Origin: Pirellulales bacterium
GTDB taxonomy: Bacteria > Planctomycetota > Planctomycetia > Pirellulales > JACPPG01
Direction of reading: 5' to 3'
DNA length: 64,000 nucleotides
NCBI GenBank assembly: GCA_036499395.1
Contig: DASYDW010000063.1
Span: 5,911-69,910, forward strand
Below, piece after piece: positions 3,349-52,594 of this stretch (its first letter is position 1; every line of letters begins with the position of its first letter). A program made the position numbers and the translations under genes. The notes beneath the pieces were generated by a model, which saw nothing but the letters and a program-made list of their open reading frames with translations, was not told where the DNA came from and ran no database searches.

Positions 3349-3756
3349 GAGGATGTGACAAGGGGACTCGTCCTCCACGCTGATGCATTTTAGCTGTGTA
3401 CATCGCACTGCTTTCGAGGGCCGGCGCTTGCATTTGGTGATGTCGCGAATGGCATACCACAAATGGCGAATGTTTGAAAATTACGCAAATAACCAGAGGA
3501 CAATTACCGCCGAAGTGCAAGATACACGGAACTGTGCCTGGCGGTCGATCAGTTAGCCGGTGGCCGCGATCGCGTCCAGGACGCTGAATTGAGCTGATTT
3601 TAACACGATATGGTCGTCCCGCTGTCGCATTGACTGCCGAACGCCGAATCGCGCGTGCTATTTATCGCGATCGACTATTTCTATCGGATGCCTAGGATGC
3701 AGTGCGGAAGGAGAGTCATCGTAAGTCAGCTTTCATCGAGTTAGCCAGGCACAATC

Positions 3757-36779: not shown

Positions 36780-37910
36780 TCAGTCGTGTCGTAGCGCGGC
36801 CGTGGGAAGAAGTCGCGCGCTGCGATAGGCTGGGTAGGCCGCCCCTACGAGCCCTACCATCAAAGCCAAAATCCACCCTTCGACCATGACGCGCCAGGGG
36901 ACCGTTCCATCGACTACTCCACTGGCAACGGGCAAGGTGCTCAGGAGCTTCGTCAAGCCGACGGCGCCAAGCGTTCCGATTGCCGCTCCGATCAAACTGA
37001 CGAGTAGCGATTCCGACAGGATCATGCGGACGATGCGTCCTTGACGCCAACCGATCGCGCGAAGGATGCCGATCTCACGCGTCCGCTCCAGTACCGTCAT
37101 GAACATGGTATTCAGCACGCCGATCGTCCCGACGATCAGGCCAATGAGCGCCGTCAGCCACGCCATCCCTTGCACGGCGCGGATCTGCGAAATGCCCGCC
37201 ACGTGATCCTTAATACTCATAGCGGTCAGTCCGGGACTGACCGCTTCTATATCCTTGGCGACGCGTTCAATTAGCGCGACGTTATTGGGTTCGGCAACGC
37301 TGACGGCAAAGCCGGTCACCTGGCCCGGCCGATCCATGAGTCGCTGCAAGTCGGCAAGCGCAATGACCATCGAGCTGTTGTCGAAGACATTGTGACTTTC
37401 ATAGATGCCGACGATGTTGAACTTTTCCAAAGCATAAAGTTCGATCGAATCGCCGAGTTTCTTGCCGAGGTTCTCGGCCAGCGTTCGCCCGATCAGCAAA
37501 GCCTGGCGATCGTCGCCCTGCAGGGCGCGCCCTTCAACGACGTTGAGGTTGCCGACGAGCCGCGACGAGGGCTGCAAGCCGCGCAACGGAACGCCGTACA
37601 GGTTCTGCTCTTCGAACGAGACAACGTCCAAGAGCGTAGGGATCACATCGACTATGTCAGGAACGGAGCGGATCTTATCGCCGATTTCGATGTCCAGGCC
37701 GCTATTTATCCGCTCTTGCACGCCGGTGCGAACGACGATCATGTCGATGCCGGCCCCCAGGTAGACGTCGAGGAAAGACGCCACAAAGCTGTCGGCGATT
37801 CCCACCAGCGCCACCATGGACCCGATCGCCACTGCCACGGCGATCACCGTCAACGCCGAACGCAACCAGCGACGCGTCACGTTGCGCCAGACGAGCGTGA
37901 ACAAATGCAT
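36780..37910 (-). CDS. ABC transporter permease, FtsX/MacB-LolC type, paralog of 32881-34011
   Basis: GGAGG lies 9 nt upstream of the ATG. Opens MHLFTLVWRNVTRRWLRSALTVIAVAVAIGSMVALV. It aligns along its whole length with the plus-strand permease, and both are exactly 376 aa. It starts 118 nt downstream of the NRPS stop on the same strand. Confidence 0.88.
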   Translation of the reverse strand: MHLFTLVWRNVTRRWLRSALTVIAVAVAIGSMVALVGIADSFVASFLDVYLGAGIDMIVVRTGVQERINSGLDIEIGDKIRSVPDIVDVIPTLLDVVSFEEQNLYGVPLRGLQPSSRLVGNLNVVEGRALQGDDRQALLIGRTLAENLGKKLGDSIELYALEKFNIVGIYESHNVFDNSSMVIALADLQRLMDRPGQVTGFAVSVAEPNNVALIERVAKDIEAVSPGLTAMSIKDHVAGISQIRAVQGMAWLTALIGLIVGTIGVLNTMFMTVLERTREIGILRAIGWRQGRIVRMILSESLLVSLIGAAIGTLGAVGLTKLLSTLPVASGVVDGTVPWRVMVEGWILALMVGLVGAAYPAYRSARLLPTAALRHD

Positions 37911-38028
37911 GAGAGGGGCACCTCCAAGACGGACCAAGACCGTGACTATCCCTGTCGCGGTCCGGTAGGTCAAGAGGCCATCGGTGCGATGCCGTCCTGC
38001 GCTGTTCAAACCGACTGAGCCTCGCGAA

Positions 38029-41000
38029 TCACGACTGCATCGTCAGATCCGGATCGATTCCGCGGGCTTCTTTGGCGGACAGCGGCGTCATCGCCGGCGC
38101 GCCATCAATTTCGAACTGCTTGCTGGCCCGCGCCAGCTGGCGACGCAACCGTTGTGCCAAGGTTCGCACGTGTGGTTCACGCATCATCGTCAGATGGTCG
38201 CCGGGAACCGTGCGGCTGCGCAGGTCTTCGGTCACATGATTTTCCCAAGAGGATGCTGCTGTCGGGACCTCGTCGCGGGGCCGCTCTTCGGCTTTCAACA
38301 GAGCGACGGGCCCCTGGTAGGATTGCGGACGAAACGCCAGCCAGGCGCGGCAATTCGCTTCGAACACTTCGTAGTGCCGCTCGATTTCCCAGCGATCCGC
38401 ACCCGGTTGAACTAGGCCGGCTCCCTCGATCTGGCGGCCAAAAAGAACTAGCTTCTCGGAGCGGGAGAGTGCCCGAATTTGGTCCGGCAGCATTTGCTCG
38501 ACGGAAGGAAACATCGACATCAACGCGGCAAAGGCGTCATCGCCTTCCTCTTGCGAATTGTCCTGCGCCGCCTGCGAGTCAATCAGCACCACTAGCGGCA
38601 CCTGCTCGCGAACATGGGCCAATTGCCGCGCCATTTCGTACGCCACGAGCCCGCCAAAGGACCAGCCTGCCAGGTAATAGGGGCCCTCGGGTTGGATCGT
38701 CCGGATTGCCTGAATGTAATCGCGGGCCATCGCTTCGACCGTCTCGTGAAAGGCTTCATGGCGAGCCAGGCCGCGCGACTCGAGCGCGTAAACCGGCTGA
38801 TCCGCGCCCAAGTGATGCGCCAAGGCGTAGTACGGAAAAGCGCTGCCGCCGGCCGGATGAACGCAGAATAGCGGCGGGCGATAGCCGGTTCGGCGAATCG
38901 CCACGAGCGGCGAACCACGATGCCGTGCCGCAGCCGCGCGCACCACCGCCGCCATCGTCGCGATCGTGGTGGCCGTGGCCATCTCGCTCGGCAGAAGGAC
39001 GATGTCGTTTCTCGCGGTGAATTTTGCCAGACATTGGTGGGCCGACTGCTGGCCGTCTCCCAGTCCGACGAGATTGTCTTCGACACCCAGCGGGCTGAGT
39101 CCCAACGTTTCCTGGCAAATATCGGTGAGCTCTGCTTCCAAGGCATTGCGGGGCGCGACATACCGGGAGAGGGCCGCTTCTCGCAGCGATGCGACGGACG
39201 CGCAGTCGACAATCATGTTGCGGAGGGCGTCGAGGAAGGCGCCTATCACGCGTTCGACCGTCTCGCGTTGATGTAACCCTTCGCAGTAGGTCCAGTCAAA
39301 GCGCAATTGGCCCCCCACGATCACGCCATTAATTTCCAGCAAATGCGTGCGATGCTGCCGCGACGAGCGCATCGAGCCGACCGACTCGCTTGCCGTGCGC
39401 AGCCGTCCGCCGGAATTCGCAAGCTGGTCGACCTGGCCGAGATAGTTGAAGGCGATCTCGGGTTGCGGCAGTGTCGCGAGCGCAGTGGTCACGGTTTCGT
39501 CCTGGCACAAGTACTTGAGCGTTCCGAATCCGATACCACGGCGAGGAATGTCCCGCAGCTGCGCTTCCATAGAGCTCACAGCGCGGCGGACGTCGGTTGT
39601 TTGATCAAGGCAGAGTCGAACCGGGAAGACACTTGTGAACCAGCCAACGGTACGCGACAGATCGACGTCGTCGAACAGGTCCTCGCGGCCGTGCCCTTCC
39701 AGATCGACCAGTAACGAATCTTCGCCGGTCCACTTCTGGAACGCTTGGGACAGGGCCGTCAGCAGGATGCTATTCAAGGGCGCGCGGTACGCGCGAGAAA
39801 CATCTTCCAGGAGCCGTCGCGTTTCGTCCACCGCGAGTGACGCCGATACAGTACGGGCGGAAGCGATCGAATTCTCCTCGCATCCCTTGTAAGCATGACC
39901 ATTGCTACCGGATTGTGTGTGGCCATTTCTCGTGTGCGAGGAAGTGGACGAAGCGGCGCCTTGGACCGGCAGGCGATCGACGGGGAGGTGCTTAAACGGA
40001 GCTTCCGCCAGCCGGAGCCAATAGTCGAGCTCCTCGCGAACCAGTGCCGACTGAGCGTACTCGATCAACCGCTCCGACCATCGCTGATACGAGGTCGTCT
40101 TGGCGTTCAAGCAGGGCGCCTCGCCGCGGCTGAGCTGCTGATAGATCAGATGCAAATCCTCGAGTAGGATGCGCCACGAGAAGGCATCCACCGCCAAGTG
40201 ATGAATGACGAATAGCAATCGACTCGGGCGTGCCGGACCAAGGTCGATCAGGCACACACGCACGAGCGGTCCCTCGGCCAGGTTCAAGCTCGCTTGCAAC
40301 TGCGTGGCAACGGCTTCGATCGCGTTCGGCTCCTCGCTGGTCGGAACTCCGGCAAGATCCACGCGGCAGTAGAGCTCGGCCTTATCGCTGGCGTCATTGG
40401 ATTGTTTCCAACCATTCTTCTCGCGAACAAAGCGCAGACGCAGAGCGTCGTGGTGCGCGACGAGATGCTCCACCGAGGCCTGCAGAAAGGAGGGTTCCAG
40501 GCGATCGTCGACTTCGAGCATGACCGCCTGGTTGAAGTGCTCAGGCGCGGCGAGTCGTTGTTCGAAGAACCAATGCTGAATGGGGGTTAACGGGACCGGC
40601 CCCACAACAGCTTCCTGTGCTGCTGCGGTGGCAAGGATCGGCACGGCCACGGTCGCCTGCTCGGCAACGGTTTGATGCTCGAATAACTGGCGTGGCGTCA
40701 GGCGCAATCCGACGCGTGCGGCGCGCGAGATGACTTGCATACTCAGGAGTGAGTCGCCGCCAAGTTCGAAGAAATTGTCGTGAATTCCGACCCGCTCCAA
40801 ACCGATCACGCCGGCCCAAATATCGGCCAGGGTCACTTCGACGTCGGTACTCGGGGCTACGTAGCATTGGTCGAGCACGGGACGGCTGCGATCGATCCCG
40901 GGCAAGCTATTCCGATCGACCTTACCGTTGGGGCTTACCGGCAGAGCCGGCAGCGCGACGAAAGTGGACGGGATCATATAGTCGGGAAGATGCGACTTGA

Positions 41001-44000
41001 TGAACTGATGCAGTTCCGTGGTCGTGGGCGCCGGAAGTTCGCCTGTGCCGACGTAGGCCACCAGCCGCTTTTCGCCCGATTCCTGTTCGCGCACGACAAC
41101 GACTGCTTCGCGGATTGCGGGGTGCGCGGTCAGCGCCGCTTCAATTTCTGGCAACTCGATGCGGAAACCGCGAACCTTGACTTGATCGTCGATTCGCCCC
41201 AGGAATTCCAGCTTGCCGTCAGCCCGGTAGCGAGCCAGGTCGCCCGTGCGGTACAGACGTCCGCCGGATCGACCGCTGAAACGATCGGGCAAGAACTTTT
41301 CAGCCGTCAGCTCGGGGCGATTCAGGTAGCCACGCGCCACGCCGACACCGCCGATATAGATCTCGCCGGGCATGCCATGCGGCACTGGTTCGAGGTGCCG
41401 ATCAAGCAAGTACACATTGACGTTGGCGAAGGGGCGGCCCAGGGCGGGCGCGCGTCCCTCGCCCGCATGGCATTCCCCTTCGGTTGCGCCTACCGTTGCT
41501 TCGGTGGGGCCGTAACCGTTGATCATTCTCCGGCCCGGCGCCCAACGATCGACCAATTTCGCTGAGCAGGCCTCGCCGGCGACGACCAACGTGCTCAAAT
41601 GTGGCAGAGGGGCGGCAGGCAATACCGACAAGACCGACGGTGGCAGGATGACAAACGTGATGCGATGATCGTCGAGCAACCGGACTAGATCAGGTCCTGG
41701 TATCAACGCGTCCTCGGGCGCCATGTATACCGATCCACCCACGGCTAACGTGGCAAAGATCTCCAGGACCGAGGCGTCGAAGTTGGGCGAAGCGAATTGC
41801 AATGTTCGACGTTCGCTGCCAGGACCGATCCATCGTGCGGCCACGGCCACGGCATTGCACACGCCACGGTGCTCGATGAGTGCACCCTTGGGCTGCCCGG
41901 TGGATCCGGAAGTGTAAATCACATAGGCCAGATTATTGGCAGTGGCCGTCCGTTGGGGATTCTCGGTCGACGCGGAGCAATCGCCTGCCGTTTCGTCGGC
42001 GAACACCATCCGGGTATTTTGCGCGGCGAAAACCGTGGCGAGTTCACGGGAGGTGACGACTACGTCGAGCTGTGCGTCGCGGAGGATCAGGTCGAGCCGC
42101 GCGGCGGGGTAATGTGGATCGAGCGGCACATAGGCGCCCCCCGCTTTGAGAATACCCAGCATGCCGGCCACTAGCTCGACCGATCGATTGAGGCAGATGC
42201 CGACCAAGACGTCGGGGCCGACACCCATCGTGCAGAGGCGATGCGCCAATCTGTTGGCCCGCTCGTTGAGCTGACGGTAAGTGAGCACCTGCTCTTGGAA
42301 ACAAAGGGCGACGGCATCGGGGTTTTCTTCCACCTTGCGCTCGAACAATTCATGAACGCACACGTCGTCGGCAAATCGGATCCGTTCGCCTGCTGCCGCG
42401 GCGAGCAGACGTTGGCGGTCATGCATACCTACCAGCGTGAGCTTCGAGATCGGATTGTCCGGTGCGGTGACCGCGGCGCCCAACAGCGTTTGGAAGGATT
42501 CGAGCAGGTGTTCGACGTTCTCCTGATCAAATAGATCCGTATTATATTCCAGCCCACCAACGAGTCGGCCGGCCTCTTGCCTGAGCGAGAGGGTAAGGTC
42601 ATGCCGCGCTGTGCCATTGTGAACTTCTTGGAAGGTCAAGTTCGGTCCGGTGAATTCGAGCGGCGCGTTCTGCAGGATGAGTGCCGCCTGGTAGAGCGGT
42701 GAGTGGCTCAGTACCCGCCGCGGCGCAAACGCCTCGACCAATCGCTCGAACGGAAGGTCCTGATGCTCGTACGCTTCCAGGGTGACCTGTCGTGTCCGTG
42801 CTAGCAGGTCGCGGAACGTCGGATCGCCTGACAGGTCGCCGCGCATCACAAGAGTGTTGACGAAAAAGCCGATCAGCCCTTCCACCTCTGGTCGGGTTCG
42901 ATGGGCAACGGCCGTGCCCACGCTGATGTCGGCTTGGCCCGTATAGCGCGAGAGAAGCGTCTGAAACGCCGCGAGCAGCGTCATATACAGCGTCGCCTGC
43001 TGCTCACGGCTAAACTGCTCCACCGCTTGCGACAGGGAGAGCGGTAGGCTCACGGGAAGGAGCGCGCCGTGAAACGTCTGCAGCGCCACACGCGGTCGAT
43101 CAGTCGGCATCGCGAGCACTGCAGGCCCGTCTTCCAGCTTGCCTCGCCAGTATTCGAACTGCGGGCTAAGCGCATCGTCGGTGCATGTTGTCCGCTGCCA
43201 GGCGGCGAAATCGGCGTATTGAATATCGAGGTCCGCCAGTGGTGATCGTTGACCGTTGGAAAAGGCCTCATAGATCAATAGAAGTTCGCGGAGAAAAACA
43301 CCCATCGACCAGCCATCGGAGATGATGTGGTGCATCGCCAACAGCAGCACGTGCTCGTCTGCCGTCAAATGCAGGTGCGTCACGTTCCACAGCGGGCCGG
43401 TCGCCAGGTCGAAGCGTTGCCGCGCCGCGGCCGATGAGATGCGCTCGACCTCGGCAGCGCGATTCATCGTGTCGAGTTCGCGTAAATCAAATTGCGCGAT
43501 CGGAACGGCGCCCAACGAGCTTACGCGTTGCTGCGGCAGTCCGCCCGCATCCACAAACGTCGTGCGAAGCGATGCATGGCGGCGAGCAATTTCCGCAAGG
43601 CTCTTTTCCAGCAGCGCCGTCTGCAGGTCGCCGCGGAAGCGCGCTGAAAGACAGAGGTTGTTTACCGGTACTTCCGGCAGCAATTGGTCGACAAACCACA
43701 ACCGCTGCTGCCCAAACGAGAGCGGCGAATCGTCCCGCTGATCGGCAGGGACGATCTTCGTAGGGCTTGCCGCGGAAGGGGTGGCGTAGTTCCGTTCAAC
43801 GACAGGGGCCAACTCGGCGACCGTGGGATGAGCAAACAACTCGCGCAGCGGCAGAGTGACGCCGCAAGCCGCCGAGACGCGCGACATGAGTTGCGTCGCC
43901 AGCAGTGAATGGCCACCGAAATCGAAGAAGTTGTCGTGGATTCCCAGGTCGTCCTGGCGAAGCACTTCGACCCAGATCTTCAGCAGCGTTCGCTCGGTAT

Positions 44001-45798
44001 CGGTGCGTGGGGGGACTGCTTCTCGCCCCTCGGCTCCGCCGCTGCTATTGTCGCACCGGCTGGCGTTCCATTGTGTCACGACCGCCAGATGGTCACTCAG
44101 ATAATCATCGCGGCAGGATCGGCGGCGGATCTTGCCGCTGGTCGTTTTACCGATGGTGCCGGCCTTGATCAGCACGATGGCTTCGACTGGCAGGTCGTGC
44201 TCAGCGAGTATTGCGCCACGTATCGACCTTACGATCTCGTTGAGATCGAGTTGCTTGGGACGGGTGACTTCCTGCACGACGACGAGCCGTTCTTGACCGT
44301 CGCGTTCCATCGAGAACGCCGCCCCGCCATCGATCTTTAAGGCCGGGTTGCAGGCCCAAATGGTGCGCTCGATGTCTTGCGGATAATAGTTCCGGCCACA
44401 GATGATAATCAGGTCCTTGAGTCGGCCGGTGACATACAGCTCGCCGGCATGCAAGAACCCCAAGTCGCCGGTGCGCAAAAACGGACCATCACCGGAGTCC
44501 GCCAGGCGAGCCGCGAACGTGCTCCGCGTCTCCTCGGGACGATTCCAATAGCCCTGCGCCACGCCGGGGCCGCGTACCCAGATTTCTCCTACGCGATCGG
44601 ATGCGGCGCGCGTGAGCGTTTGCGGATCGACGATCACGACCTCGGTTTCCTCGATCGCGGGACCACAGCTTGCCAGGGTTCGTGAATTCGATTTCCCATT
44701 CAAATTGGCAACGACCTGATTCTCCTCCAGATTCGTTGCACAAAAGTCACCGACGGTGTAGAGACTTTCGTGGTCTCCGCCAGTGACGCCCAAGGTGGCT
44801 TCGGCCAGCCCGTAACAGGGAACGAACGCCGTCGGGCGAAAGCCACAGGGGGCGAAGGTCTGAGTGAATCGCTCCAACGTGTCGCGACGAACCGGCTCGG
44901 CGCCATTGAGGATGACTGCCAGGCTGGTCAGATCGAGGGCTTTGATCTCCGCGGGCAGTACCGTTCGCGAGCAAAGATCGAAGGCAAAATTCGGGGCGCC
45001 GGTGATTGTGCCACGATAGCGGGAAATCGCCTCGAGCCACCGAATGGGCCGTTGCATGAAGTCTAGCGGCGACATGGAAATCGTCTGTCGGCCAGCATAC
45101 ATCGGCAGGAGCACGCCACCGATCAAACCAAAGTCGTGGTAGGCGGGCAGCCAAGTAACGCCAACGACGCCTTGGCTCTGGCCGCGGTCGATCTTCGCCA
45201 CGTTGTAGAGCAGGTTGGCGTGGCTCACCATCACACCGCGCGGCGTACCGGTTGAGCCGGAGGTGTATTGCAATAACCCCAGTGTCGTAGAGGTAATCGT
45301 CGGCGGCGTCCAATCGTCTTCGCACCCGACAGGGAGTGCGTCGGTGGCCAATATCATGCGAATCGAGGGACCGATCGTCACGAGTGCCTGGACCCAAGTC
45401 AGACTGTTCGCCGTGCCGAGCACCGCAACGGCCTGTGCGTCGTTGCACACGGCCTGCAGCCGGGGAAGCGTGCGATCCATGCGCAATGGATCAGGCGGAT
45501 AGAGCGGTACCGGTGTCACGCCGGCGTATAAGCAACCAAAGAATGCGGCAATGTAGTCAAGCCCTGGCGGATACAACAACAAGGCCCGGCCGCCGGTGGC
45601 GCCCGCGGCATTCAATCGCACCGCGATGCGGCGCGCGATCACGTCCAACTGACCGTAAGTGAGATTGAGCTCGTCTCGTTCGCCGTCAGTCAGGAACGTA
45701 TAAGCGATCTGATCCGCTTGGAGGTTTGCCCGGTAGCGGCACATTTCCAGAAACGTTTCCACTTCTGGAATCGGTAAGTCCCTCGATAACTCCGACAT
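38029..45798 (-). CDS. non-ribosomal peptide synthetase, single amino-acid module with lipo-initiation: FAAL-T-C-A-T-E-T*(degenerate)-TE
   Basis: One uninterrupted ORF. Domain motifs are listed in the domain features below. The ATG at 45798 (MSELSRD) is preferred; an alternative TTG lies at 45816. Confidence 0.93.
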   Translation of the reverse strand: MSELSRDLPIPEVETFLEMCRYRANLQADQIAYTFLTDGERDELNLTYGQLDVIARRIAVRLNAAGATGGRALLLYPPGLDYIAAFFGCLYAGVTPVPLYPPDPLRMDRTLPRLQAVCNDAQAVAVLGTANSLTWVQALVTIGPSIRMILATDALPVGCEDDWTPPTITSTTLGLLQYTSGSTGTPRGVMVSHANLLYNVAKIDRGQSQGVVGVTWLPAYHDFGLIGGVLLPMYAGRQTISMSPLDFMQRPIRWLEAISRYRGTITGAPNFAFDLCSRTVLPAEIKALDLTSLAVILNGAEPVRRDTLERFTQTFAPCGFRPTAFVPCYGLAEATLGVTGGDHESLYTVGDFCATNLEENQVVANLNGKSNSRTLASCGPAIEETEVVIVDPQTLTRAASDRVGEIWVRGPGVAQGYWNRPEETRSTFAARLADSGDGPFLRTGDLGFLHAGELYVTGRLKDLIIICGRNYYPQDIERTIWACNPALKIDGGAAFSMERDGQERLVVVQEVTRPKQLDLNEIVRSIRGAILAEHDLPVEAIVLIKAGTIGKTTSGKIRRRSCRDDYLSDHLAVVTQWNASRCDNSSGGAEGREAVPPRTDTERTLLKIWVEVLRQDDLGIHDNFFDFGGHSLLATQLMSRVSAACGVTLPLRELFAHPTVAELAPVVERNYATPSAASPTKIVPADQRDDSPLSFGQQRLWFVDQLLPEVPVNNLCLSARFRGDLQTALLEKSLAEIARRHASLRTTFVDAGGLPQQRVSSLGAVPIAQFDLRELDTMNRAAEVERISSAAARQRFDLATGPLWNVTHLHLTADEHVLLLAMHHIISDGWSMGVFLRELLLIYEAFSNGQRSPLADLDIQYADFAAWQRTTCTDDALSPQFEYWRGKLEDGPAVLAMPTDRPRVALQTFHGALLPVSLPLSLSQAVEQFSREQQATLYMTLLAAFQTLLSRYTGQADISVGTAVAHRTRPEVEGLIGFFVNTLVMRGDLSGDPTFRDLLARTRQVTLEAYEHQDLPFERLVEAFAPRRVLSHSPLYQAALILQNAPLEFTGPNLTFQEVHNGTARHDLTLSLRQEAGRLVGGLEYNTDLFDQENVEHLLESFQTLLGAAVTAPDNPISKLTLVGMHDRQRLLAAAAGERIRFADDVCVHELFERKVEENPDAVALCFQEQVLTYRQLNERANRLAHRLCTMGVGPDVLVGICLNRSVELVAGMLGILKAGGAYVPLDPHYPAARLDLILRDAQLDVVVTSRELATVFAAQNTRMVFADETAGDCSASTENPQRTATANNLAYVIYTSGSTGQPKGALIEHRGVCNAVAVAARWIGPGSERRTLQFASPNFDASVLEIFATLAVGGSVYMAPEDALIPGPDLVRLLDDHRITFVILPPSVLSVLPAAPLPHLSTLVVAGEACSAKLVDRWAPGRRMINGYGPTEATVGATEGECHAGEGRAPALGRPFANVNVYLLDRHLEPVPHGMPGEIYIGGVGVARGYLNRPELTAEKFLPDRFSGRSGGRLYRTGDLARYRADGKLEFLGRIDDQVKVRGFRIELPEIEAALTAHPAIREAVVVVREQESGEKRLVAYVGTGELPAPTTTELHQFIKSHLPDYMIPSTFVALPALPVSPNGKVDRNSLPGIDRSRPVLDQCYVAPSTDVEVTLADIWAGVIGLERVGIHDNFFELGGDSLLSMQVISRAARVGLRLTPRQLFEHQTVAEQATVAVPILATAAAQEAVVGPVPLTPIQHWFFEQRLAAPEHFNQAVMLEVDDRLEPSFLQASVEHLVAHHDALRLRFVREKNGWKQSNDASDKAELYCRVDLAGVPTSEEPNAIEAVATQLQASLNLAEGPLVRVCLIDLGPARPSRLLFVIHHLAVDAFSWRILLEDLHLIYQQLSRGEAPCLNAKTTSYQRWSERLIEYAQSALVREELDYWLRLAEAPFKHLPVDRLPVQGAASSTSSHTRNGHTQSGSNGHAYKGCEENSIASARTVSASLAVDETRRLLEDVSRAYRAPLNSILLTALSQAFQKWTGEDSLLVDLEGHGREDLFDDVDLSRTVGWFTSVFPVRLCLDQTTDVRRAVSSMEAQLRDIPRRGIGFGTLKYLCQDETVTTALATLPQPEIAFNYLGQVDQLANSGGRLRTASESVGSMRSSRQHRTHLLEINGVIVGGQLRFDWTYCEGLHQRETVERVIGAFLDALRNMIVDCASVASLREAALSRYVAPRNALEAELTDICQETLGLSPLGVEDNLVGLGDGQQSAHQCLAKFTARNDIVLLPSEMATATTIATMAAVVRAAAARHRGSPLVAIRRTGYRPPLFCVHPAGGSAFPYYALAHHLGADQPVYALESRGLARHEAFHETVEAMARDYIQAIRTIQPEGPYYLAGWSFGGLVAYEMARQLAHVREQVPLVVLIDSQAAQDNSQEEGDDAFAALMSMFPSVEQMLPDQIRALSRSEKLVLFGRQIEGAGLVQPGADRWEIERHYEVFEANCRAWLAFRPQSYQGPVALLKAEERPRDEVPTAASSWENHVTEDLRSRTVPGDHLTMMREPHVRTLAQRLRRQLARASKQFEIDGAPAMTPLSAKEARGIDPDLTMQS
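38137..38874 (-). other. NRPS domain: type I thioesterase
   Basis: PLFCVHPAGGSAFPY, GWSFGG nucleophile elbow (Ser codon 2386, 38659-38661), and a late GDHLTMM His region. Confidence 0.88.
38941..39162 (-). other. NRPS domain: degenerate carrier-like domain lacking the phosphopantetheine serine
   Basis: YVAPRNALEAELTDICQETLGLSPLGVEDNLVGLGDGQQSAHQCL aligns without gaps to the YVAPxxxxExxLxxIWxxxLGxxxxGxxDNFFxLGGDSLxAxQL consensus. The core GGDS is replaced by GDGQ (39046-39060). Confidence 0.7.
39202..40602 (-). other. NRPS domain: epimerization (E) domain
   Basis: PLTPIQHWFF, HHLAVDAFSWRIL (HH at 40198-40203), EGHGRE (39682-39699), RTVGWFTSVFPV. These motifs together separate E domains from ordinary C domains. 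The domain contains a Ser/Thr/His/Gly-rich low-complexity insert. Confidence 0.8.
40627..40854 (-). other. NRPS domain: peptidyl carrier protein 2
   Basis: IHDNFFELGGDSLLSMQV, with Ser codon 1689 (40750-40752). Confidence 0.88.
40909..42363 (-). other. NRPS domain: amino-acid adenylation domain
   Basis: LTYRQLNERANRLA, LAYVIYTSGSTGQPKG, FDASVLEIF, NGYGPTEATV, GEIYIGGVGVARGYLNRPELT, YRTGDLARY, KVRGFRIELPEIE, NGKVDR. Confidence 0.9.
42412..43734 (-). other. NRPS domain: condensation domain (probable starter/lipid-accepting C)
   Basis: SFGQQRLWFVDQL (C1) and MHHIISDGWS (C3; the HH pair is at 43327-43332). Confidence 0.85.
43771..43998 (-). other. NRPS domain: carrier protein 1 (acyl carrier)
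   Basis: IHDNFFDFGGHSLLATQL. The phosphopantetheine Ser is codon 637 counted from the TTG ORF start at 45816 (43906-43908). Confidence 0.85.
44032..45798 (-). other. NRPS domain: fatty acyl-AMP ligase (FAAL)-type adenylation domain
   Basis: TFLEMCRYRANLQADQIAYTFL opening, QYTSGSTGTPRGVMVSHANL, YGLAEATL, FLRTGDLGF, GKIRR. It is followed directly by a carrier domain, not a CoA-ligase context. Confidence 0.8.
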
Positions 45799-47491
45799 GC
45801 TCAGCCCTTTGCCCAATCTTCAATCGCATCGCGAAGCATTTAAAGGAAGGTCGCGATCCATGAAATACGACCGCCTGACGTCGACCGGGCGGTCTAATGA
45901 CCAGTGCCGGACGAGGTCGAATTTGCAGGCGACGTGCCTGAAACAGGCGTGCATTCAAGAAAGCGCAGTCCAACCCTATATGTTACTATTGTCTTTCCCC
46001 GTCTAGACATTAGTACAGTGGCTCCGCACCGCCTCCCAGGCTACCTTGCCGCAAAACGACCCTCAAGTAAAAACCCCAAGAGGCCAGGCGTTTCTGCGTG
46101 CTACACTGGTCCGATTTTGTCCCCTATTCCGGCCAGTTCGAAGGGATACCGTTCACTAATGGCGGTCCGGCATCCCGAAAAATGGCCACTCGAAGGGGAA
46201 ATACTTCTTCGATAAAAATGAGTTGAACAGCCCACTCAGTAGCCGGCGCTGAAATTGCACTAATCGAATCGGTGGGACCGCAGCGATGGGCGCCGGTCAG
46301 AAATTATCCATGCATACTGAGTGGTGCGCCACTGCCGCGAACTACTTCTCCGATTTGCTTCGGTCCGACACACCGACGCAGTGGTGCGAAAACAAAGTCC
46401 GGTATCCGCCCATCCGGCACAGTCGAAGCGCATGAATCGTTTCAGAAAACGACCAAATAACGAGACGAGTAAAGTACCAACGTCCGCCGTTATCGAATGC
46501 TGCAAACGGACAAGCGGTCCGGTTGTGCTCGGACGGCAATGACATCACCGGAACGAGCAGTTGCGGAAAGTTGTCATTTCTAAGACTGCTCCGTTTTAGG
46601 AACCTTTGATAGGACCCATTGGTGTGCTGCTGCGACTAAATTAGAGTTTCGCGTTCGCTCCGTTTCACCGCATTGACCCGAATGGGCGGTATTGGGGAAA
46701 AACGCGCGGCCGACCCGCCATACGCCAGGCGCTTCGAACGCTTCCTCGCCATTTCCACATACGCAGGCCGTACTTGATGCGATTTGCAATCTTCGCGCCC
46801 TTGACGATGCCGACGGCATCGGCGACGGATTTTTTGGTCAGACAGTGCCTCCGATTACATCCATCACAACAAGAGATCGGAACCTTCGGGCAAAGAAGGG
46901 CTGCTCGATGTGCGGATAATCGATGGTCTGCGACGCTCCTATCTTGGGTATCGCACGATCAAGCTGCAGCCCCTGGCCAGAGTGCAGCGTCCGTATCGCG
47001 GCTAGCCCATTAAGAGACGCCCTACGAGAAAGCCCGCGCCGGTGAAGGCCCCTCCTCCTTCGAAAAAGTTGGAACTGTAACGCAGCATCATGGCGGTCAC
47101 GAATCGGGCCGGAACGGCGCTGTTTGCATCCGCGGATTTGTTGCGGATGAATTTCCGTGGAAATGCCAGGAAGGCGATTGGTATTAGTTGCCGTGCGACT
47201 CGTCGTGTTTGCGAGTGAAAGTCGCTGACGGCCATGTTCTCTGGCTCTCATTTGTTCAAGGCAGATGGGGGGCTTATCGCCGGTGCGTCGCGCATTGCCC
47301 GCGCTATGTAGTTGCCGTCGTGACAAGTCCCCCCTATGTGCGACGAGTTGCGCGCAAATCCTGCGTTGTGACTTGTTTCTGCGCTGCGCGATGTTTACAA
47401 CGTGCGCCTACCAACTGCGCTACATCGAGTGCAAAGCCTGGCGAACAGTCTTCGCAGGTCTTGGTAACCGCGGCTTTCTAAGGGGGCATCC

Positions 47492-50400
47492 GTGGGTGAA
47501 AATTCTGGCTGGTCGTCCACCAACGTCTTGCTGCCCGGCGCGATTGCGCTGGCCTTGGCGATCACAAGCTACTTGACCTATGAGCCGACGCTGACATCCG
47601 TTCGACCGGCGGCACGTACGGTCCACGGGATTCCCCCGCCACCGACCCCGGATGGGATGGAGGCGTTCTATTCGCGATTGTGGGAAGACCCCCTGCTGAC
47701 CTCGTACAACAACCAGACAGCCAAAGGTGACGCGAACGCAAAGGATGACGCAAAACCGCAGCCGACTTATACAGCTGGTCCGGTGCCGTTGAACGAAGAC
47801 TGGGATGCGGCCTACAAGGACACCTTCACGAAGATTCTGAAGAAAAGTCACGGCAGCCTGCTATGCGTGCCCGTACTCGTTCCTGGCGGACCGTATGCGG
47901 ACGACGGCGAAGCGCGGATGCGAACCCGTTACGCGATCCAGATGGGGCTCGCCCGCGCGGGCTATGAGCTGGCCTTTCCGATGCAAATGAGCTACGTCGA
48001 CGTACCTGTGACCGTCGACATCGACGACGTCCCCGTACAAGTGTGTGCGAAACGATTTCGCGTTCCGGTGAAAATCTTTAGCTTTCGCTCGGAATCAAAG
48101 AAGGACAAAGGCAAGAATCAGCCTGACTTTGTCGTCGTCTTGTGGATTAACGAAGACGAAGCAGGTAGCCGGCTATTGAACGTGGTCGACCAGGTAGTCG
48201 CTGCGCTGTTCAGGCCAAAACGGCGCAGCGAAAGCGTGCGCGACCAGTTTCGCGCTGATCGCGAGTGGCGCGCGCGGATGAGCGTCCGCGTGATCGGGCC
48301 CTCCTCGTCCGACGGCCTGCGAAAAATCTACTTAGAGCAGCGCAGCACCCACCCGCATAAGACCGAGCCGCAGATCCCGCTCGCCGGCTTTCGCGACCCA
48401 AAGATTTATTCGCCGCGCGCCACGATTTCACACGATGAGCTGGAAGAGTTGGTAAACGAGCAACTCGCGATTCGGCAAGCGTCAAGCGGCAACAACGCCC
48501 GAGCCGAGATGAAGACGGCGACCTCGGTCGCTGTGTTTCCTCCCATCATTCGCACGATCGGCGATGACAACGTGCTGATCGAGGCGTTGATTGGCGAGCT
48601 AAAGCGGCGTAATCATTGGCTGCCGCCACCGGAATGCGACTGCAAAGTCGCACCAACGCAGCCGGACGACCATTATGGCGCGAAGAGGGAGCGAACCGGC
48701 GACAGGCAGAAGGGTGGGGCCATCGTGCTGGTCTCCGAGCAAGACACTCTCTATGGCCGGACATTTTCCAGGTTGCTCGATGACCGTCGTCCGGGCCACT
48801 CGCTCTACAGATACTCGTTCTTTCGCGGCCTCGACGGCGCGATACCCGGCGATCGAGCACCGGCGATCGAGTCCGAGCTACATAGCCTGTTGGATCGCGC
48901 GCAACATCCTGTGACAAGCCAAGACGGCGACAACGAGCCTCGCCCGACCGGCAAGGGACAAGCCGATTATCTGCGGCGGCTGGAATCGAAGTTAGTTGAT
49001 TTGGACGACCGAGAATGGGAACACGGCATCGCAGCCATTGGCGTTGTGGGCACTGACCAGTACGACAAGTTACTATTCCTGCGCGCGCTACGGCGACAAT
49101 TCCCGCGCGCCGTCTTCTTCACCACCGATCTCGACGCGGACTTCGCACATCCTAGCGAGCGTTTGACAACCCGCAACGTCGTCGTGGCATCGCATTTTGG
49201 CTTGCAGCTGAGTTCAGCGTTGCAGTGGGATGTACCGCCGTTTCGCGATTGCTACCAGACGTCGACTTTTTTCGCGGCCTTATTGGCGCTCGGCCCGAAA
49301 GCGGTCGATGATCTGCCGGAATCCGTGAAGAACAATCCGTGGGGCGAGCACGGAAACAGCACAGATGCGGAACACTTGAAACCATTGGTTTATGAAATCG
49401 GTCTGGACGGGCCGTACCAGTTGACGATCCCCCAAGGCCCGTACGAAACCGACGGCCAAACTCAGGTTCAGCCGGATAGCCCACGGAGCTTTTTGCCGTC
49501 GTCGCGCCGCTTGGCGGCATTGTTAATGGCGACCGTGTCGCTAGTAATGCTTCTGATCGTGAGCTTCACGTGGCCGCGTCGGCTGATTCGGTCAGAACGT
49601 ACCAAGAGCTTTGCGACATTTCTAGTCGCGCTCGGCGGGATGACGATTGGTTTTGTGACACTATTCTTGGTTCTATGGGCACTGGAGTTGTTTGATCATC
49701 ACCGTGACGACGGTGAGCCCTTTTCATGGAACCGGGGCATTAGTCTATGGCCGACGATCTTGATTCAACTCTTGGCGGGCGTGACGGCGTTTGTCTTGTT
49801 CTTGTCCAGTTGCAATGACCTGAAGAAGCTACGTAACCACTTCTGGAAATGGGCCAACCCGGTTCTCCCCAAGGACTCTAAGCCGCCAACATCTGGTCAG
49901 GCGTTTCGAAATATGTCGTGGCAGGAAAGGGCCGCCTATGTCTGGGACGACGTTCTGACGTTTAATTGGCATGCCCAGGCTGCTGACGAAATCTATTCTG
50001 CCCGCAAGCTGTGCGCCGAATACGTCGAACGATCGCAATGGTGGCATCGGATGCTGCGCGTCGTGCCACAGGTGGCGTTATTCGTGGCGTTTACGATCTG
50101 CTTGTTTCAAATTACCGCACTCCCCACACGTCCCTTTCGTGGCTGGCTGTGCTATCGGGCTTCTTCCATTGCAATTCTTGTGGCTTTGTTTTCACCGGTC
50201 GTACTATCCTTCTTCATGATCGACGCGATGCAACTGTGCCGGCGTTATATTCGCCTGTTGGAGCAGGCCACTCCCGACTGGCAGAACCGCGAGTTCAGCG
50301 ACCTGATGAAGGCCAGGGTATTTCCGTCAACTGGGGACGACCAACAGTCGGCGAATGCTGAACTCACGCCGAATGACGCCGAGCAAAAGCCGAGTGATGG

Positions 50401-50872
50401 CAAGCACAAGCCGGGTGACGCCGAGCAACTCACCAGGAAATTGTTCACGGTGCATGTGATTGCGGATTCCTCGCACGTCGTGGGCAAGCTGATCTTGTAT
50501 CCGTTCATTGTCGTGTTCCTGCTCTTTATCGCGCGCAGCCCGATGTTCGATTATCTGACTCTGGGCGCAGGATTGATCACGATATGGGTGTTGTTGCTTG
50601 CCGGAGCCGCGATGGCCAGCATCTCGATGCGCGTGACCGCGGCTCACACGCGTGACGGAATCCTGGCGCAGTTACGCAATGAATTGGCAGGATGCTCCGA
50701 CACGCGGCAATGCGACATGATCAAGCAGACCATCAAGGACATTGCCGACGAACAACAGGGGGCCTTCCGCCATTGGTCCAGCGACCCGGTCTTCGGTGCG
50801 CTTGTAATCCTGCTCGGCGGCGGCGGCAGCCTGGTGGCGATCGAGCAGTTGCTCCCCTGGATGCTGATGTAG
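47492..50872 (+). CDS. large orphan polytopic membrane protein (N-terminal TM, ~600-aa extracytoplasmic-looking alpha/beta region, ~8 C-terminal TMs)
   Basis: GTG start with AAGGGGG 6 nt upstream. The 1126-codon ORF has one N-terminal and about eight C-terminal hydrophobic segments. No catalytic motif recognised. Confidence 0.65.
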   Translation: MGENSGWSSTNVLLPGAIALALAITSYLTYEPTLTSVRPAARTVHGIPPPPTPDGMEAFYSRLWEDPLLTSYNNQTAKGDANAKDDAKPQPTYTAGPVPLNEDWDAAYKDTFTKILKKSHGSLLCVPVLVPGGPYADDGEARMRTRYAIQMGLARAGYELAFPMQMSYVDVPVTVDIDDVPVQVCAKRFRVPVKIFSFRSESKKDKGKNQPDFVVVLWINEDEAGSRLLNVVDQVVAALFRPKRRSESVRDQFRADREWRARMSVRVIGPSSSDGLRKIYLEQRSTHPHKTEPQIPLAGFRDPKIYSPRATISHDELEELVNEQLAIRQASSGNNARAEMKTATSVAVFPPIIRTIGDDNVLIEALIGELKRRNHWLPPPECDCKVAPTQPDDHYGAKRERTGDRQKGGAIVLVSEQDTLYGRTFSRLLDDRRPGHSLYRYSFFRGLDGAIPGDRAPAIESELHSLLDRAQHPVTSQDGDNEPRPTGKGQADYLRRLESKLVDLDDREWEHGIAAIGVVGTDQYDKLLFLRALRRQFPRAVFFTTDLDADFAHPSERLTTRNVVVASHFGLQLSSALQWDVPPFRDCYQTSTFFAALLALGPKAVDDLPESVKNNPWGEHGNSTDAEHLKPLVYEIGLDGPYQLTIPQGPYETDGQTQVQPDSPRSFLPSSRRLAALLMATVSLVMLLIVSFTWPRRLIRSERTKSFATFLVALGGMTIGFVTLFLVLWALELFDHHRDDGEPFSWNRGISLWPTILIQLLAGVTAFVLFLSSCNDLKKLRNHFWKWANPVLPKDSKPPTSGQAFRNMSWQERAAYVWDDVLTFNWHAQAADEIYSARKLCAEYVERSQWWHRMLRVVPQVALFVAFTICLFQITALPTRPFRGWLCYRASSIAILVALFSPVVLSFFMIDAMQLCRRYIRLLEQATPDWQNREFSDLMKARVFPSTGDDQQSANAELTPNDAEQKPSDGKHKPGDAEQLTRKLFTVHVIADSSHVVGKLILYPFIVVFLLFIARSPMFDYLTLGAGLITIWVLLLAGAAMASISMRVTAAHTRDGILAQLRNELAGCSDTRQCDMIKQTIKDIADEQQGAFRHWSSDPVFGALVILLGGGGSLVAIEQLLPWMLM
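50366..50428 (+). repeat. 3 x 21-bp in-frame tandem repeat (heptads TPNDAEQ / KPSDGKH / KPGDAEQ)
   Basis: Read directly from acgccgaatgacgccgagcaa / aagccgagtgatggcaagcac / aagccgggtgacgccgagcaa, inside a loop of the large membrane protein. Confidence 0.8.
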
Positions 50873-50908
50873 CGATCGCTCGAGCAACAGCGCCCAAAGC
50901 TGCCCGTG

Positions 50909-52507
50909 CTACGGCCGGCTGCGCCGGTGCTCGCGCAACTCGGCAAGCTCTTTTTGCATGTCTTGCACTTTCTCCGGCATCTGCGCTGCCAAATTATGTT
51001 TTTCGCCCGGATCGTCCGCCAGGTTCACCAGCATCGGCTCGCGATCGGGCTTGCCACCGTAGCCGGCCTGGCTGGATTGCAAAAGCTTCCACGGTCCGTC
51101 GCGCAGCGCCAGGACACCCGGATAGCCGCCCGTGTGATGCACCAGCTTGTCGCGCACGGCGCTGGGCTTGCCCAACAGCGCCGGCAGAGCGTTGTAGCTG
51201 TCCGGTGCTTCGTCGTCAGTCAATGTCCGGCCCAAAAGCGCCGCGCATGTGGCGAAGAGATCGACGTGGCAGATCAATTGATCCGAGACACCCACGGGCA
51301 CATGCCCCGGCCAGCGGGCAATGAACGGAACGCGATGGCCCCCCTCGAACAAACTCCCCTTGAAGCCGCGCCAGTCACCGTTGGGGCGCTTTGCGCCGAG
51401 ATCGCCTGCGGCCCCGTCCTGATAACCGTCATCGAGAACGCCGCCGTTATCGCTGGTGAAGATAACCAGCGTGTCCTTGGCAAGATCGGCGCGCTCGAGC
51501 GAGGCCAGGATTTCGCCCACCGATCCATCGAGCTGCATAATCACGTCGCCGCGCGCGCCGTGGCCGCTACGATCGGCATAGCGCGGGTGCGGGACGCGCG
51601 GCACGTGAATGTCATGCGTACAGAAGTACAAAAAGAACGGTCGATTGCGCTCGCGCTCGATGAATTGCACGGCCGCGCGTGTCAACACGTCCGCCATTTC
51701 GGTGTCGACCCACCGCGCGGACTTTCCGCCCGACATATACCCAATGCGGCTGATGCCGTTGACGATCGTATTGTCATGCCCGTGGCTGGGCAGGATCGTC
51801 ATCAGCTCGGGGTTGGCCTTGCCGGTGGGATCGTTGCCGATCGGCGTGCCGTAGCTGACTTGGATCGGATCATTTGGGTCGTAACCAACGACACGACGAT
51901 CCTCGACGTAAACACATGGCGTGCGATCGCCTGTGGCCGGCACGCCGAAAAAACTGCTGAAACCAATTTCGAGAGGGCCGGGCTTGATCTCGCGGTTGTA
52001 GTCGGTCTGGCCCGTGATGGTGCCGTCCGGCAATCGCTCGCCGCCAAGCCCCAGGTGCCACTTGCCGACGGCGGCGGCCTCGTAGCCCGACGCTTGAAAG
52101 CGTATGGCCAGCGTAGTCCCGGAAACCGGAATGCATAGCGGCGAGACGCCGCTTAAGATCCCTGCGGCCGGCTTGTGCCGCCAGGCGTATTGGCCGGTAA
52201 GCAACGCATAGCGCGTCGGGGTGCAGACCGACGAGGGGGAGTGCGCGTCGGTGAAACGCCGCCCCGCGCGCGCCAGCCGATCGATGTGCGGAGTTTCGAC
52301 CTCGGTCGCCCCGTAACAGCCCAAGTCTCCGTAGCCGACATCGTCGGCCAGAATAATGATGACGTTCGGTCTGCCCGATGGCTCCGCGAAACAGGCCTGA
52401 TTTACACCGCCGAATGACGAAAGTCCGCAAACCCAGCCAATGATTAGCAAAGTGAATCTGCCTAGCCAATATCGGACGGACGAGCTGATGACGGAATTGG
52501 AAAGCAT
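50909..52507 (-). CDS. arylsulfatase A-family sulfatase (formylglycine-dependent), secreted
   Basis: SSVCTPTRYALLTGQY (CxPxR), GKWHLG and N-terminal DDVGYGDLGCYG. The signal peptide follows the ATG at 52507. This ATG, unlike the upstream TTG at 52537, is conserved in the second copy of the 98-bp cassette. Confidence 0.92.
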   Translation of the reverse strand: MLSNSVISSSVRYWLGRFTLLIIGWVCGLSSFGGVNQACFAEPSGRPNVIIILADDVGYGDLGCYGATEVETPHIDRLARAGRRFTDAHSPSSVCTPTRYALLTGQYAWRHKPAAGILSGVSPLCIPVSGTTLAIRFQASGYEAAAVGKWHLGLGGERLPDGTITGQTDYNREIKPGPLEIGFSSFFGVPATGDRTPCVYVEDRRVVGYDPNDPIQVSYGTPIGNDPTGKANPELMTILPSHGHDNTIVNGISRIGYMSGGKSARWVDTEMADVLTRAAVQFIERERNRPFFLYFCTHDIHVPRVPHPRYADRSGHGARGDVIMQLDGSVGEILASLERADLAKDTLVIFTSDNGGVLDDGYQDGAAGDLGAKRPNGDWRGFKGSLFEGGHRVPFIARWPGHVPVGVSDQLICHVDLFATCAALLGRTLTDDEAPDSYNALPALLGKPSAVRDKLVHHTGGYPGVLALRDGPWKLLQSSQAGYGGKPDREPMLVNLADDPGEKHNLAAQMPEKVQDMQKELAELREHRRSRP

Positions 52508-52594
52508 GGGCCGTCTCACGGGATGTATGTCGGACAAGTTGTTGGAATTCGACGGTTAGTATCAATCGCCGCACGGCAAGGGTCAACGATTCAT
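52497..52594 (-). repeat. 98-bp promoter/leader/start-codon cassette, copy A (drives the sulfatase gene)
   Basis: 94 of 98 positions are identical to 58858-58955 in the same orientation. On the minus strand it contains TTGACC (52581-52586), a 17-nt spacer, GATACT (52558-52563), a ~50-nt leader and ATGCTTTCCAA. Confidence 0.85.

Follow-up and report, generated by a model that had tools for sequence, protein, structure and literature searches.

A large, unannotated bacterial protein family that joins a predicted Venus-flytrap domain to a 7TMIC-like membrane module: a candidate ligand-gated channel

Introduction

The seven-transmembrane ion channel (7TMIC) superfamily comprises the insect odorant and gustatory receptors, the DUF3537 and PHTF families, and bacterial and archaeal members; its defining features were listed by Himmel, Moi & Benton (bioRxiv 10.1101/2023.08.30.555482). 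In the prokaryotic screen of these authors, only matches with exactly seven predicted transmembrane helices (TMs) were analysed further, and the N-terminal re-entrant loop TM0 was not used as a criterion (bioRxiv 10.1101/2023.08.30.555482). Recognition of 7TMICs in bacteria and archaea dates only from 2023. Here, we describe a 1126-residue protein encoded in a 64,000-nucleotide stretch of DNA from a Pirellulales bacterium (contig DASYDW010000063.1, positions 5,911 to 69,910; hereafter “the window”), in which a predicted periplasmic binding-protein domain precedes a membrane module with 7TMIC-like features. Because exactly seven TMs were required, a protein that has nine TMs and a large periplasmic domain would have dropped out of the published screen. 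To our knowledge, no function or ligand has been established for any bacterial or archaeal 7TMIC.

How does this architecture compare with other described systems? The large domain shares a two-lobed alpha/beta fold and, by prediction, a periplasmic location with LivJ and LivK, the cluster-B (type-I) binding proteins of the Peripla_BP_6/ANF_receptor clan. Unlike these, it is no free binding protein of an ATP-binding cassette (ABC) importer: it is predicted to be tethered to the membrane at both ends, it carries large insertions, and no similarity to LivJ could be detected in its sequence. The class C G-protein-coupled receptors (GPCRs; mGluR, GABAB, T1R) likewise place a Venus flytrap of the same fold outside the membrane, above seven helices, but these helices run N-out/C-in, have an unrelated fold, and signal through G proteins; the architectures are convergent, and the membrane parts are not homologous. 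In ionotropic glutamate receptors (iGluRs), including bacterial GluR0, a domain with a binding-protein fold gates an oligomeric cation channel, and such gating is what we propose here. The amino-terminal domains of iGluRs also have the type-I fold in common with the family domain; however, the iGluR gating domain has a type-II fold, and the window protein lacks the inverted K+-channel module that forms the iGluR pore. Bacterial receptors of the 7TMR-DISM type comprise an extracellular domain, seven TMs, and a cytoplasmic kinase, cyclase or phosphatase output domain. They, too, join an extracytoplasmic sensor to a 7TM module, but they have their own output domains and other sensor domains, neither of which was detected in the family protein. 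Full-text searches of the literature found no account of a binding-protein/7TMIC fusion.

The explanation that we favor, to which we would give slightly less than an even chance, is that the protein is a ligand-gated channel or chemoreceptor in which a binding-protein domain and a 7TMIC-like module are combined, acting as a stand-alone protein of the inner membrane. The coordinates of the features discussed below are collected in Table 1.

Table 1. Features of the gene and of its predicted protein product. Positions are those of the window.
Feature	Residues	Position	Strand	Evidence
Open reading frame, complete, GTG start	1126 residues in all	47492..50872	+	List of open reading frames and identical NCBI entry
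Shine-Dalgarno-like AAGGGGG, 5 nt 5' of the GTG start		47480..47486	+	Read from the sequence
TM0, signal-anchor helix, N-in; poorly conserved (0.33)	12-30	47525..47581	+	Hydropathy; AlphaFold2 helix 13-28
RLWEDP motif, just outside the membrane, near-invariant	62-67	47675..47692	+	Column frequencies
Type-I periplasmic-binding-protein (Venus-flytrap, LivJ-like) domain	~121-645	47852..49426	+	AlphaFold2, Foldseek, Lys/Arg bias
Linker TM, periplasm to cytoplasm, poorly conserved	670-699	49499..49588	+	Hydropathy; AlphaFold2; Lys/Arg-rich loop after it
Seven-helix module, N-in/C-out, 7TMIC-like fold	706-1125	49607..50866	+	AlphaFold2 (two models), Foldseek, Lys/Arg topology
Module helices TM1; TM2; TM3; TM4	706-737; 753-788; 850-874; 885-925
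Module helices TM5; TM6; TM7a; TM7b	975-1013; 1026-1066; 1071-1085; 1099-1125
Outer loop EL1, GEPFxxxxG[IV]SxWP, most conserved part of the module	738-754	49703..49753	+	Column frequencies
Split last helix: TM7a cytoplasmic, G-A-F linker, TM7b	1071-1085; 1099-1125	50702..50866	+	AlphaFold2, column frequencies

Results

A very large bacterial family without annotation

The gene at 47492-50872 is genuine. Its product is identical to an NCBI entry named “hypothetical protein VGN12_09530 [Pirellulales bacterium]”, and in alignments its N-terminus lines up with those of its homologues. Sixteen full-length homologues were found (1030-1345 residues, E-values down to 3.6e-186); because these occur in several phyla at identities of 24-36%, the gene is certainly real.

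The initial annotation of the window, made from the sequence without database searches, had called this protein an orphan. As to kin, that was wrong: a family profile of 17 sequences, searched against 1.84 billion cluster representatives (50%-identity clusters), matched 5882 representatives at E ≤ 1e-3, of which 3301 also reach E ≤ 1e-30. The typical length is about 1000-1300 residues, and the best 150 of the 5882 are nearly all full length (950-1600 residues). The term holds true in the sense that no annotated family is matched. Searches of Pfam, NCBIfam, PADLOC and PDB sequences returned nothing for the 1126-residue protein and only noise for the 16 homologues and the family profile, in keeping with the original remark that no catalytic or transporter signature is recognizable. 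The source names found are always “hypothetical protein”, bar one evidently spurious label. The family is very large, bacterial, and without annotation.

Across the 150 representatives, 133 positions are at least 80% identical. The family motifs begin with an N-terminal series (RLWEDP, ExRxRxRYA, IGPxSS, SxxAT, RTIxTD, SExDTxYGR, YLRGLDG and QxDYLRRL), continue with AIGVxGxDxYDKLLVLxALR, FFTTDLDAR, TRNLxVAS, PPFRDSYQT, FEIGR and GEPFxxxxGxSxWP, and end with PxxPxRG, DAxxLCxRF, YPF, ARxxxFDxW and GAFxP. Some members are elaborated. An extra N-terminal region is present in the 1350-1600-residue proteins P0061, P0069, P0089, P0102, P0014 and P0015, where the profile match begins at about 500-670, and in P0004, P0011 and P0013 the stretch from the linker TM to TM1 is lengthened by long insertions or by two additional TM helices.

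When one genome per species was scanned with two peptide patterns, 530 confirmed family loci emerged, the best 80 of which were counted by taxon. Nitrospira-lineage genomes hold 22 of these, Nitrosospira or Nitrosovibrio 15, Nitrococcus 2, and Planctomycetota 17 (one of them Scalindua); the remaining loci belong to Burkholderiales (Variovorax paradoxus, Ideonella, Accumulibacter), Deltaproteobacteria, Acidobacteriota and Verrucomicrobiota. In raw counts, nitrifier lineages contribute 39 of the 80, and one further locus comes from the anammox genus Scalindua. This is not a bias of the query, since the query was planctomycete-centered; the share of nitrifiers in these counts may hint at a nitrogen-related ligand. 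Cultured nitrifiers that have the family include Nitrosospira multiformis, Nitrospira defluvii, Nitrospira moscoviensis and Nitrococcus mobilis; cultured Variovorax paradoxus has it as well.

Predicted membrane topology

Kyte-Doolittle hydropathy analysis gave one TM near the N-terminus (residues 12-30) and eight within the last 460 residues, the cores of which start at 674, 710, 756, 854, 892, 996, 1026 and 1099. Together with the corresponding N-terminal helix in an AlphaFold2 (AF2) model, these results reproduce the anatomy first described for this open reading frame (ORF): 1126 residues comprising an N-terminal anchor, an alpha/beta region, and a C-terminal region of eight TMs.

Which side of the membrane does the large domain face? 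Lysine and arginine alternate regularly between successive loops, a pattern that was seen in 17 homologues and then in the 150 representatives. In the latter, the mean Lys+Arg content on the inner side is 6.9 for the segment from the linker TM to TM1 and 14.3, 8.6 and 10.7 for inner loops IL1, IL2 and IL3, respectively; on the outer side it is 0.5, 1.8 and 1.4 for outer loops EL1, EL2 and EL3, and 0.5 for the C-terminal tail. Because the short loops have 0.5-1.8 such residues against 6.9-14.3 in the long ones, the binding domain is placed outside and the seven helices N-in/C-out. By the positive-inside rule, a periplasmic location of the ~600-residue domain, between TM0 and the linker TM, is well supported by prediction, and the designation of this region as an ectodomain is borne out to that extent. 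Likewise well supported by prediction is a seven-helix module that runs N-in/C-out with 7TMIC-like helix geometry. In the RLWEDP motif, R62 and W64 are each 99% conserved among the 150 homologues, and D66 and P67 are each 100% conserved.

The predicted binding domain

A full-length AF2 model was calculated from 17 sequences (mean predicted local distance difference test score, pLDDT, 71; predicted template modelling score, pTM, 0.72). Its large domain shows beta-alpha alternation and a two-lobed alpha/beta organization interrupted by several insertions, the long ones being a beta-hairpin at 167-198 and disordered segments at 377-406 and 450-488. When this model was compared with the PDB using Foldseek, the first matches were five binding proteins of the Leu/Ile/Val type (4gnr, 4q6b, 4nv3, 3td9 and 4obb), with E-values from 1.8e-6 (4gnr) to 8e-5 and target-normalized TM-scores of 0.54-0.60 (highest for 3td9). 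The next were the flytraps of the sweet receptor, GABAB, fish T1R and mGlu receptors, followed by the amino-terminal domains of iGluRs. The initial annotation had quoted six peptides as hydrophobic strands preceding helices and had seen in them a Rossmann-like or binding-protein pattern. Indeed, all six coincide with beta-strands of the AF2 model (123-130, 213-220, 263-268, 410-416, 513-519 and 541-545), each of which is then followed by a helix. From these modelled structures, a type-I binding-protein fold for the large domain is well supported.

Conservation in this domain is extensive: 85 positions are at least 80% conserved, and about 25 charged residues are invariant or nearly so, including E140, R142, D359, E416, D418, D448, D522, D525, D548 and R585. 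We also placed the domain in register with LivJ by eye, an arrangement that no alignment tool confirmed and that we offer as an assumption only. In it, IGPSSS presumably corresponds to IGHLCSS, which contains the LivJ ligand residue S79; SPRAT is taken to match TPAAT, with ligand residue T102; and SEQDTLYG is taken to match HDKQQYG, with ligand residue Y150. The further pairs that we assume, RTIGDD with RTTGLD and QADYLRRL with KDFSTLVARL, contain no ligand residue. This presumed, unconfirmed register would put the near-invariant S273, T311 and Y421 at LivJ ligand positions, with the invariant D522 and D546/D548 nearby.

The seven-helix module

In the Foldseek search with the full-length model, the insect receptors Gr43a, BmGr9, Gr64a, OR28 and OR5-Orco ranked below the binding proteins (Gr43a: E 0.018, probability 0.99). 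A second AF2 model was restricted to residues 645-1126, with the homologues trimmed to the same region (pLDDT 73.6, pTM 0.73). Its top eight PDB matches were all insect 7TM channels: Gr43a in several states, OR5-Orco, AaegOR10 and MhOR5. BmGr9, AgamOR28 and Gr64a also appeared within the top 18, and the alignments span essentially the whole module. The best match was Gr43a (E 4.8e-3, probability up to 1.00). Matches to proteins other than 7TMICs, among them ABC exporters, pyrophosphatases and GltTk, all had probabilities below 0.2. The protein had initially been judged receptor- or channel-like on account of its architecture; the resemblance of its last seven helices to insect 7TM ion-channel chemoreceptors strengthens that description.

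The predicted helix geometry also resembles that of 7TMICs, with which the module shares seven N-in/C-out helices, short outer and long inner loops, cytoplasmic extensions of TM4-TM6, and a last helix split into TM7a and TM7b. By the AF2 helix boundaries of the window protein, the outer loops measure 10-15 residues versus 50-80 for the inner ones; in the broader alignment windows of the 150 homologues, the medians are 21, 16 and 14 residues (outer) and 81, 54 and 58 residues (inner). TM4, TM5 and TM6 extend over 41, 39 and 41 residues, respectively, as compared with 25-32 for TM1 and TM3, and the conserved cytoplasmic helices amount to about 220 residues. Both AF2 models split the last helix, with a break at G1090-A-F1092 and P1099 between the segments 1071-1085 and 1099-1125.

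As reported for 7TMICs, conservation is gathered at the C-terminal end, and its distribution in the module resembles the anchor and pore pattern described for that superfamily. The maxima fall in EL1-EL3, TM5, the cytoplasmic extensions of TM4 and TM6, the 7a-7b linker, and TM7b. The three short periplasmic loops have a mean top-residue frequency of 0.55-0.57, which is as expected if they dock the flytrap; they could couple the module to the sensor. In EL1, a candidate contact with the binding domain, conservation reaches 91% for E742, 98% for P743, G749, W753 and P754, and 100% for S751. The end of the protein, conserved-looking at first reading, proved moderately conserved, with column values of 99% for G1090, 96% for F1092, 94% for P1099, 86% for A1103 and 84% for G1109. 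Across the family, TM7b reads P-x-x-[RK]-A-L-L-L-P-F-G-G-x-G-G in consensus, and its outer end bears an acidic or amide residue; the window protein has a leucine at the usually conserved Pro 1107. Such a helix-breaking segment of small residues would be compatible with a pore-lining or hinge element, for which TM7b is our candidate. A place for the module within the 7TMIC fold, by membership or by convergence, is probable but unproven.

Genomic context

The window reads as an ordinary piece of a planctomycete chromosome; its genes include those for two-component systems, a Kup transporter, a WD40 protein and an acetyltransferase. The initial annotation had noted that the family gene is divergent from a gene for a non-ribosomal peptide synthetase (NRPS) and had deemed a functional link plausible. 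The orientation is as stated, yet the two starts (45816 on the minus strand and 47492) lie 1.7 kb apart. The spacer (45817-47491) has a GC content of 0.57, versus 0.60-0.62 in the flanking coding sequence. It is unusually long for a bacterial intergenic region, and no convincing ORF (only Arg-rich chance ORFs), Rfam match or sigma-70-like promoter was found in it.

Does the family gene keep constant company elsewhere? Gene tables around six homologues were entirely unlike each other, save for a convergent sulfatase at one planctomycete homologue. We then clustered the ORFs within 4 kb of the family gene at 89 loci. No neighbor is conserved: no ORF family was present at more than 9 of these loci, and an NRPS did not recur. 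Those neighbors that do recur reflect within-genus synteny (an aldolase, DNA polymerase III alpha, NnrS, and a Nitrosospira-specific ORF of 477 residues). The family gene is a stand-alone unit. Given the 1.7-kb separation and the lack of an NRPS among the neighbors at the 89 homologous loci, the suggested functional link to the NRPS was not upheld.

The 477-residue ORF has no Pfam match and starts 2 nt 3' of the family gene in 9 Nitrosospira/Nitrosovibrio loci (in L044, at 9314-10747 on the plus strand). It is unrelated both to the ORF downstream of the family gene in the window and to a 443-residue ORF upstream of P0002, and it could be a clade-specific partner. P0002 itself, the closest homologue, has as its neighbors (L001, 1475-8774) a 1170-residue CHAT-protease protein, a PLD-like protein, and the 443-residue protein, which has no family match. 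This neighborhood is reminiscent of conflict systems; the combination was not seen at the other loci.

Other genes of the window merit brief mention. The NRPS (38029-45816, minus strand, 2595 residues) opens with an acyl-AMP-ligase-like N-terminus and closes with a thioesterase; it also has one adenylation domain, two carrier domains and two condensation domains. Directly downstream of it lies a MacB/FtsX-type permease (36780-38009), and the pair (36780-45816, minus strand) looks like a small unit for lipopeptide synthesis and export. A sulfatase gene (50909-52537, minus strand; Pfam E 1.1e-45) is convergent on the family gene, as one is beside homologue P0003. The 410-residue plus-strand ORF at 50906-52138 has no family match and is probably spurious, because it is antisense to this well-supported sulfatase gene. 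A 2947-residue ORF (6383-15226, minus strand) with GH94 supersandwich, catalytic and glucoamylase-like domains resembles cyclic beta-1,2-glucan synthase. Finally, ORFs of 967 residues (60944-63847, plus strand) and 509 residues (1933-3462, minus strand) have no Pfam match at E ≤ 1e-5.

Discussion

The reading that we favor makes the protein a bacterial ligand-gated channel of a new kind. How might it work? The chain would run from a cytoplasmic N-terminus through TM0 to the periplasmic flytrap, and from there through the linker TM into the seven-helix module. A small periplasmic ligand would close the flytrap; the TM helices on either side of it and the three short outer loops, which are highly conserved, would pass the movement on; and a pore lined by the Pro/Gly-rich TM7b, oligomeric and probably tetrameric, would open. 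We infer that ligand binding in the flytrap gates an oligomeric, TM7b-lined pore. The protein would be a one-component ligand-gated channel or chemoreceptor, with iGluR/GluR0 and class C GPCRs as analogues that are made from other pairs of modules, and it would be unrelated to the adjacent NRPS. Scans of Pfam and NCBIfam recognized no cytoplasmic output domain in the family protein. Since there is neither an output domain nor a partner gene at the 89 loci, a self-contained function such as that of a channel is favored.

Could the protein instead be a receptor that does not conduct? The flytrap would then sense the ligand, and the seven helices would relay the signal to a cytoplasmic bundle formed by the extensions of TM4 through TM7a, which would recruit or regulate a partner encoded elsewhere. 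The ~220 residues of conserved cytoplasmic helices are consistent with such a relay, and the logic of a sensor plus seven TMs is that of the class C GPCRs, with which the flytrap fold is held in common. However, a relay of this kind is at odds with the lack of a recognizable output domain and of a conserved neighbor, and the sole fold relatives of the module are channels; we therefore regard it as unlikely, although it is the strongest of the competitors. A secondary transporter, in which the fused LivJ-like domain captures a solute and hands it to the polytopic module for uptake, appears somewhat less likely again. The nearest structural relatives of the N-terminal domain are indeed substrate-binding proteins of ABC transporters, and other systems do have binding proteins fused to permeases. 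Yet the module matched no transporter fold specifically (the ABC exporters, pyrophosphatases and GltTk were among the low-probability matches), no ATPase or permease partner is conserved nearby, and helical extensions into the cytoplasm make up about half of the module, an atypical feature for a carrier.

The possibility that the Rossmann-like lobes are catalytic, so that the protein is a membrane-anchored periplasmic enzyme or assembly factor whose TM module serves as an anchor or substrate conduit, strikes us as improbable. It would account for the ~25 invariant or near-invariant charged residues, a number larger than is usual for simple binding proteins, but the top structural matches are binding proteins, the lone enzyme among the matches being glycogen synthase 2bis (probability 0.33), and no catalytic family emerged from the Pfam, NCBIfam, PADLOC or PDB sequence searches. 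As for a sensor, exporter or immunity protein for the NRPS product, the divergent orientation of the two genes is all that speaks for it. Against it stand the long spacer, the MacB-type permease that the NRPS already has downstream, and the occurrence of the homologues in unrelated contexts without an NRPS, where only the convergent sulfatase beside one planctomycete homologue is shared with the window. We consider this role essentially excluded.

Several results limit or weigh against the reading as a ligand-gated channel. The TM-scores of the module against 7TMICs are 0.34-0.41, below the practical threshold of 0.5 used in the field. There is no sequence-profile link either: no 7TMIC Pfam family (7tm_6, 7tm_7, DUF3537) matched the window protein at E ≤ 10, and no 7TMIC chain appeared in the PDB sequence and profile searches. 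Both AF2 models derive from shallow alignments of 14-17 sequences, and TM0, the linker TM and TM1 were modelled at low confidence. The window protein further differs from 7TMICs in having two additional TM helices and a 600-residue periplasmic binding domain before the module, and a full membrane-spanning linker helix (670-699) stands before TM1 in place of the re-entrant TM0. For the N-terminal domain, comparisons with E. coli LivJ and LivK by hhalign and hmmsearch were not significant, with a LivJ side that was thin (listed homologues all at least 86% identical, effective number of sequences 1). Peripla_BP_6/ANF_receptor gave no Pfam match at E ≤ 10 in the window protein and none at E ≤ 0.1 among the 17 members. 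Lastly, the unusually many invariant charged residues of this domain could equally point to catalysis or to an obligate protein interface.

What would a flytrap-gated channel of this kind mean? It would combine two known kinds of system, flytrap-gated membrane signalling and the 7TMIC superfamily. A broader proposal, namely that the family comprises widespread bacterial one-component chemoreceptor channels, thousands of members strong, in which a flytrap directly gates a channel of the 7TMIC superfamily, is one that we put forward as possible and hold more tentatively than the reading of the window protein alone. Whatever the answer on 7TMICs, some 5900 50%-identity clusters without a Pfam or NCBIfam entry constitute a notable annotation gap. 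If the proposal is true, the direct fusion of a module of the 7TMIC kind to a classical ligand-binding domain would suggest that the module serves in ligand gating, and the family would provide the first candidate ligand-sensing mechanism for prokaryotic 7TMICs. The soluble domains of the family could be screened for ligands, and its orthologues in culturable bacteria would lend themselves to genetics and electrophysiology; together these would make a tractable system for learning how the 7TMIC fold is gated. Alongside class C GPCRs and iGluRs, it would be the third independent union of a Venus flytrap with membrane signalling.

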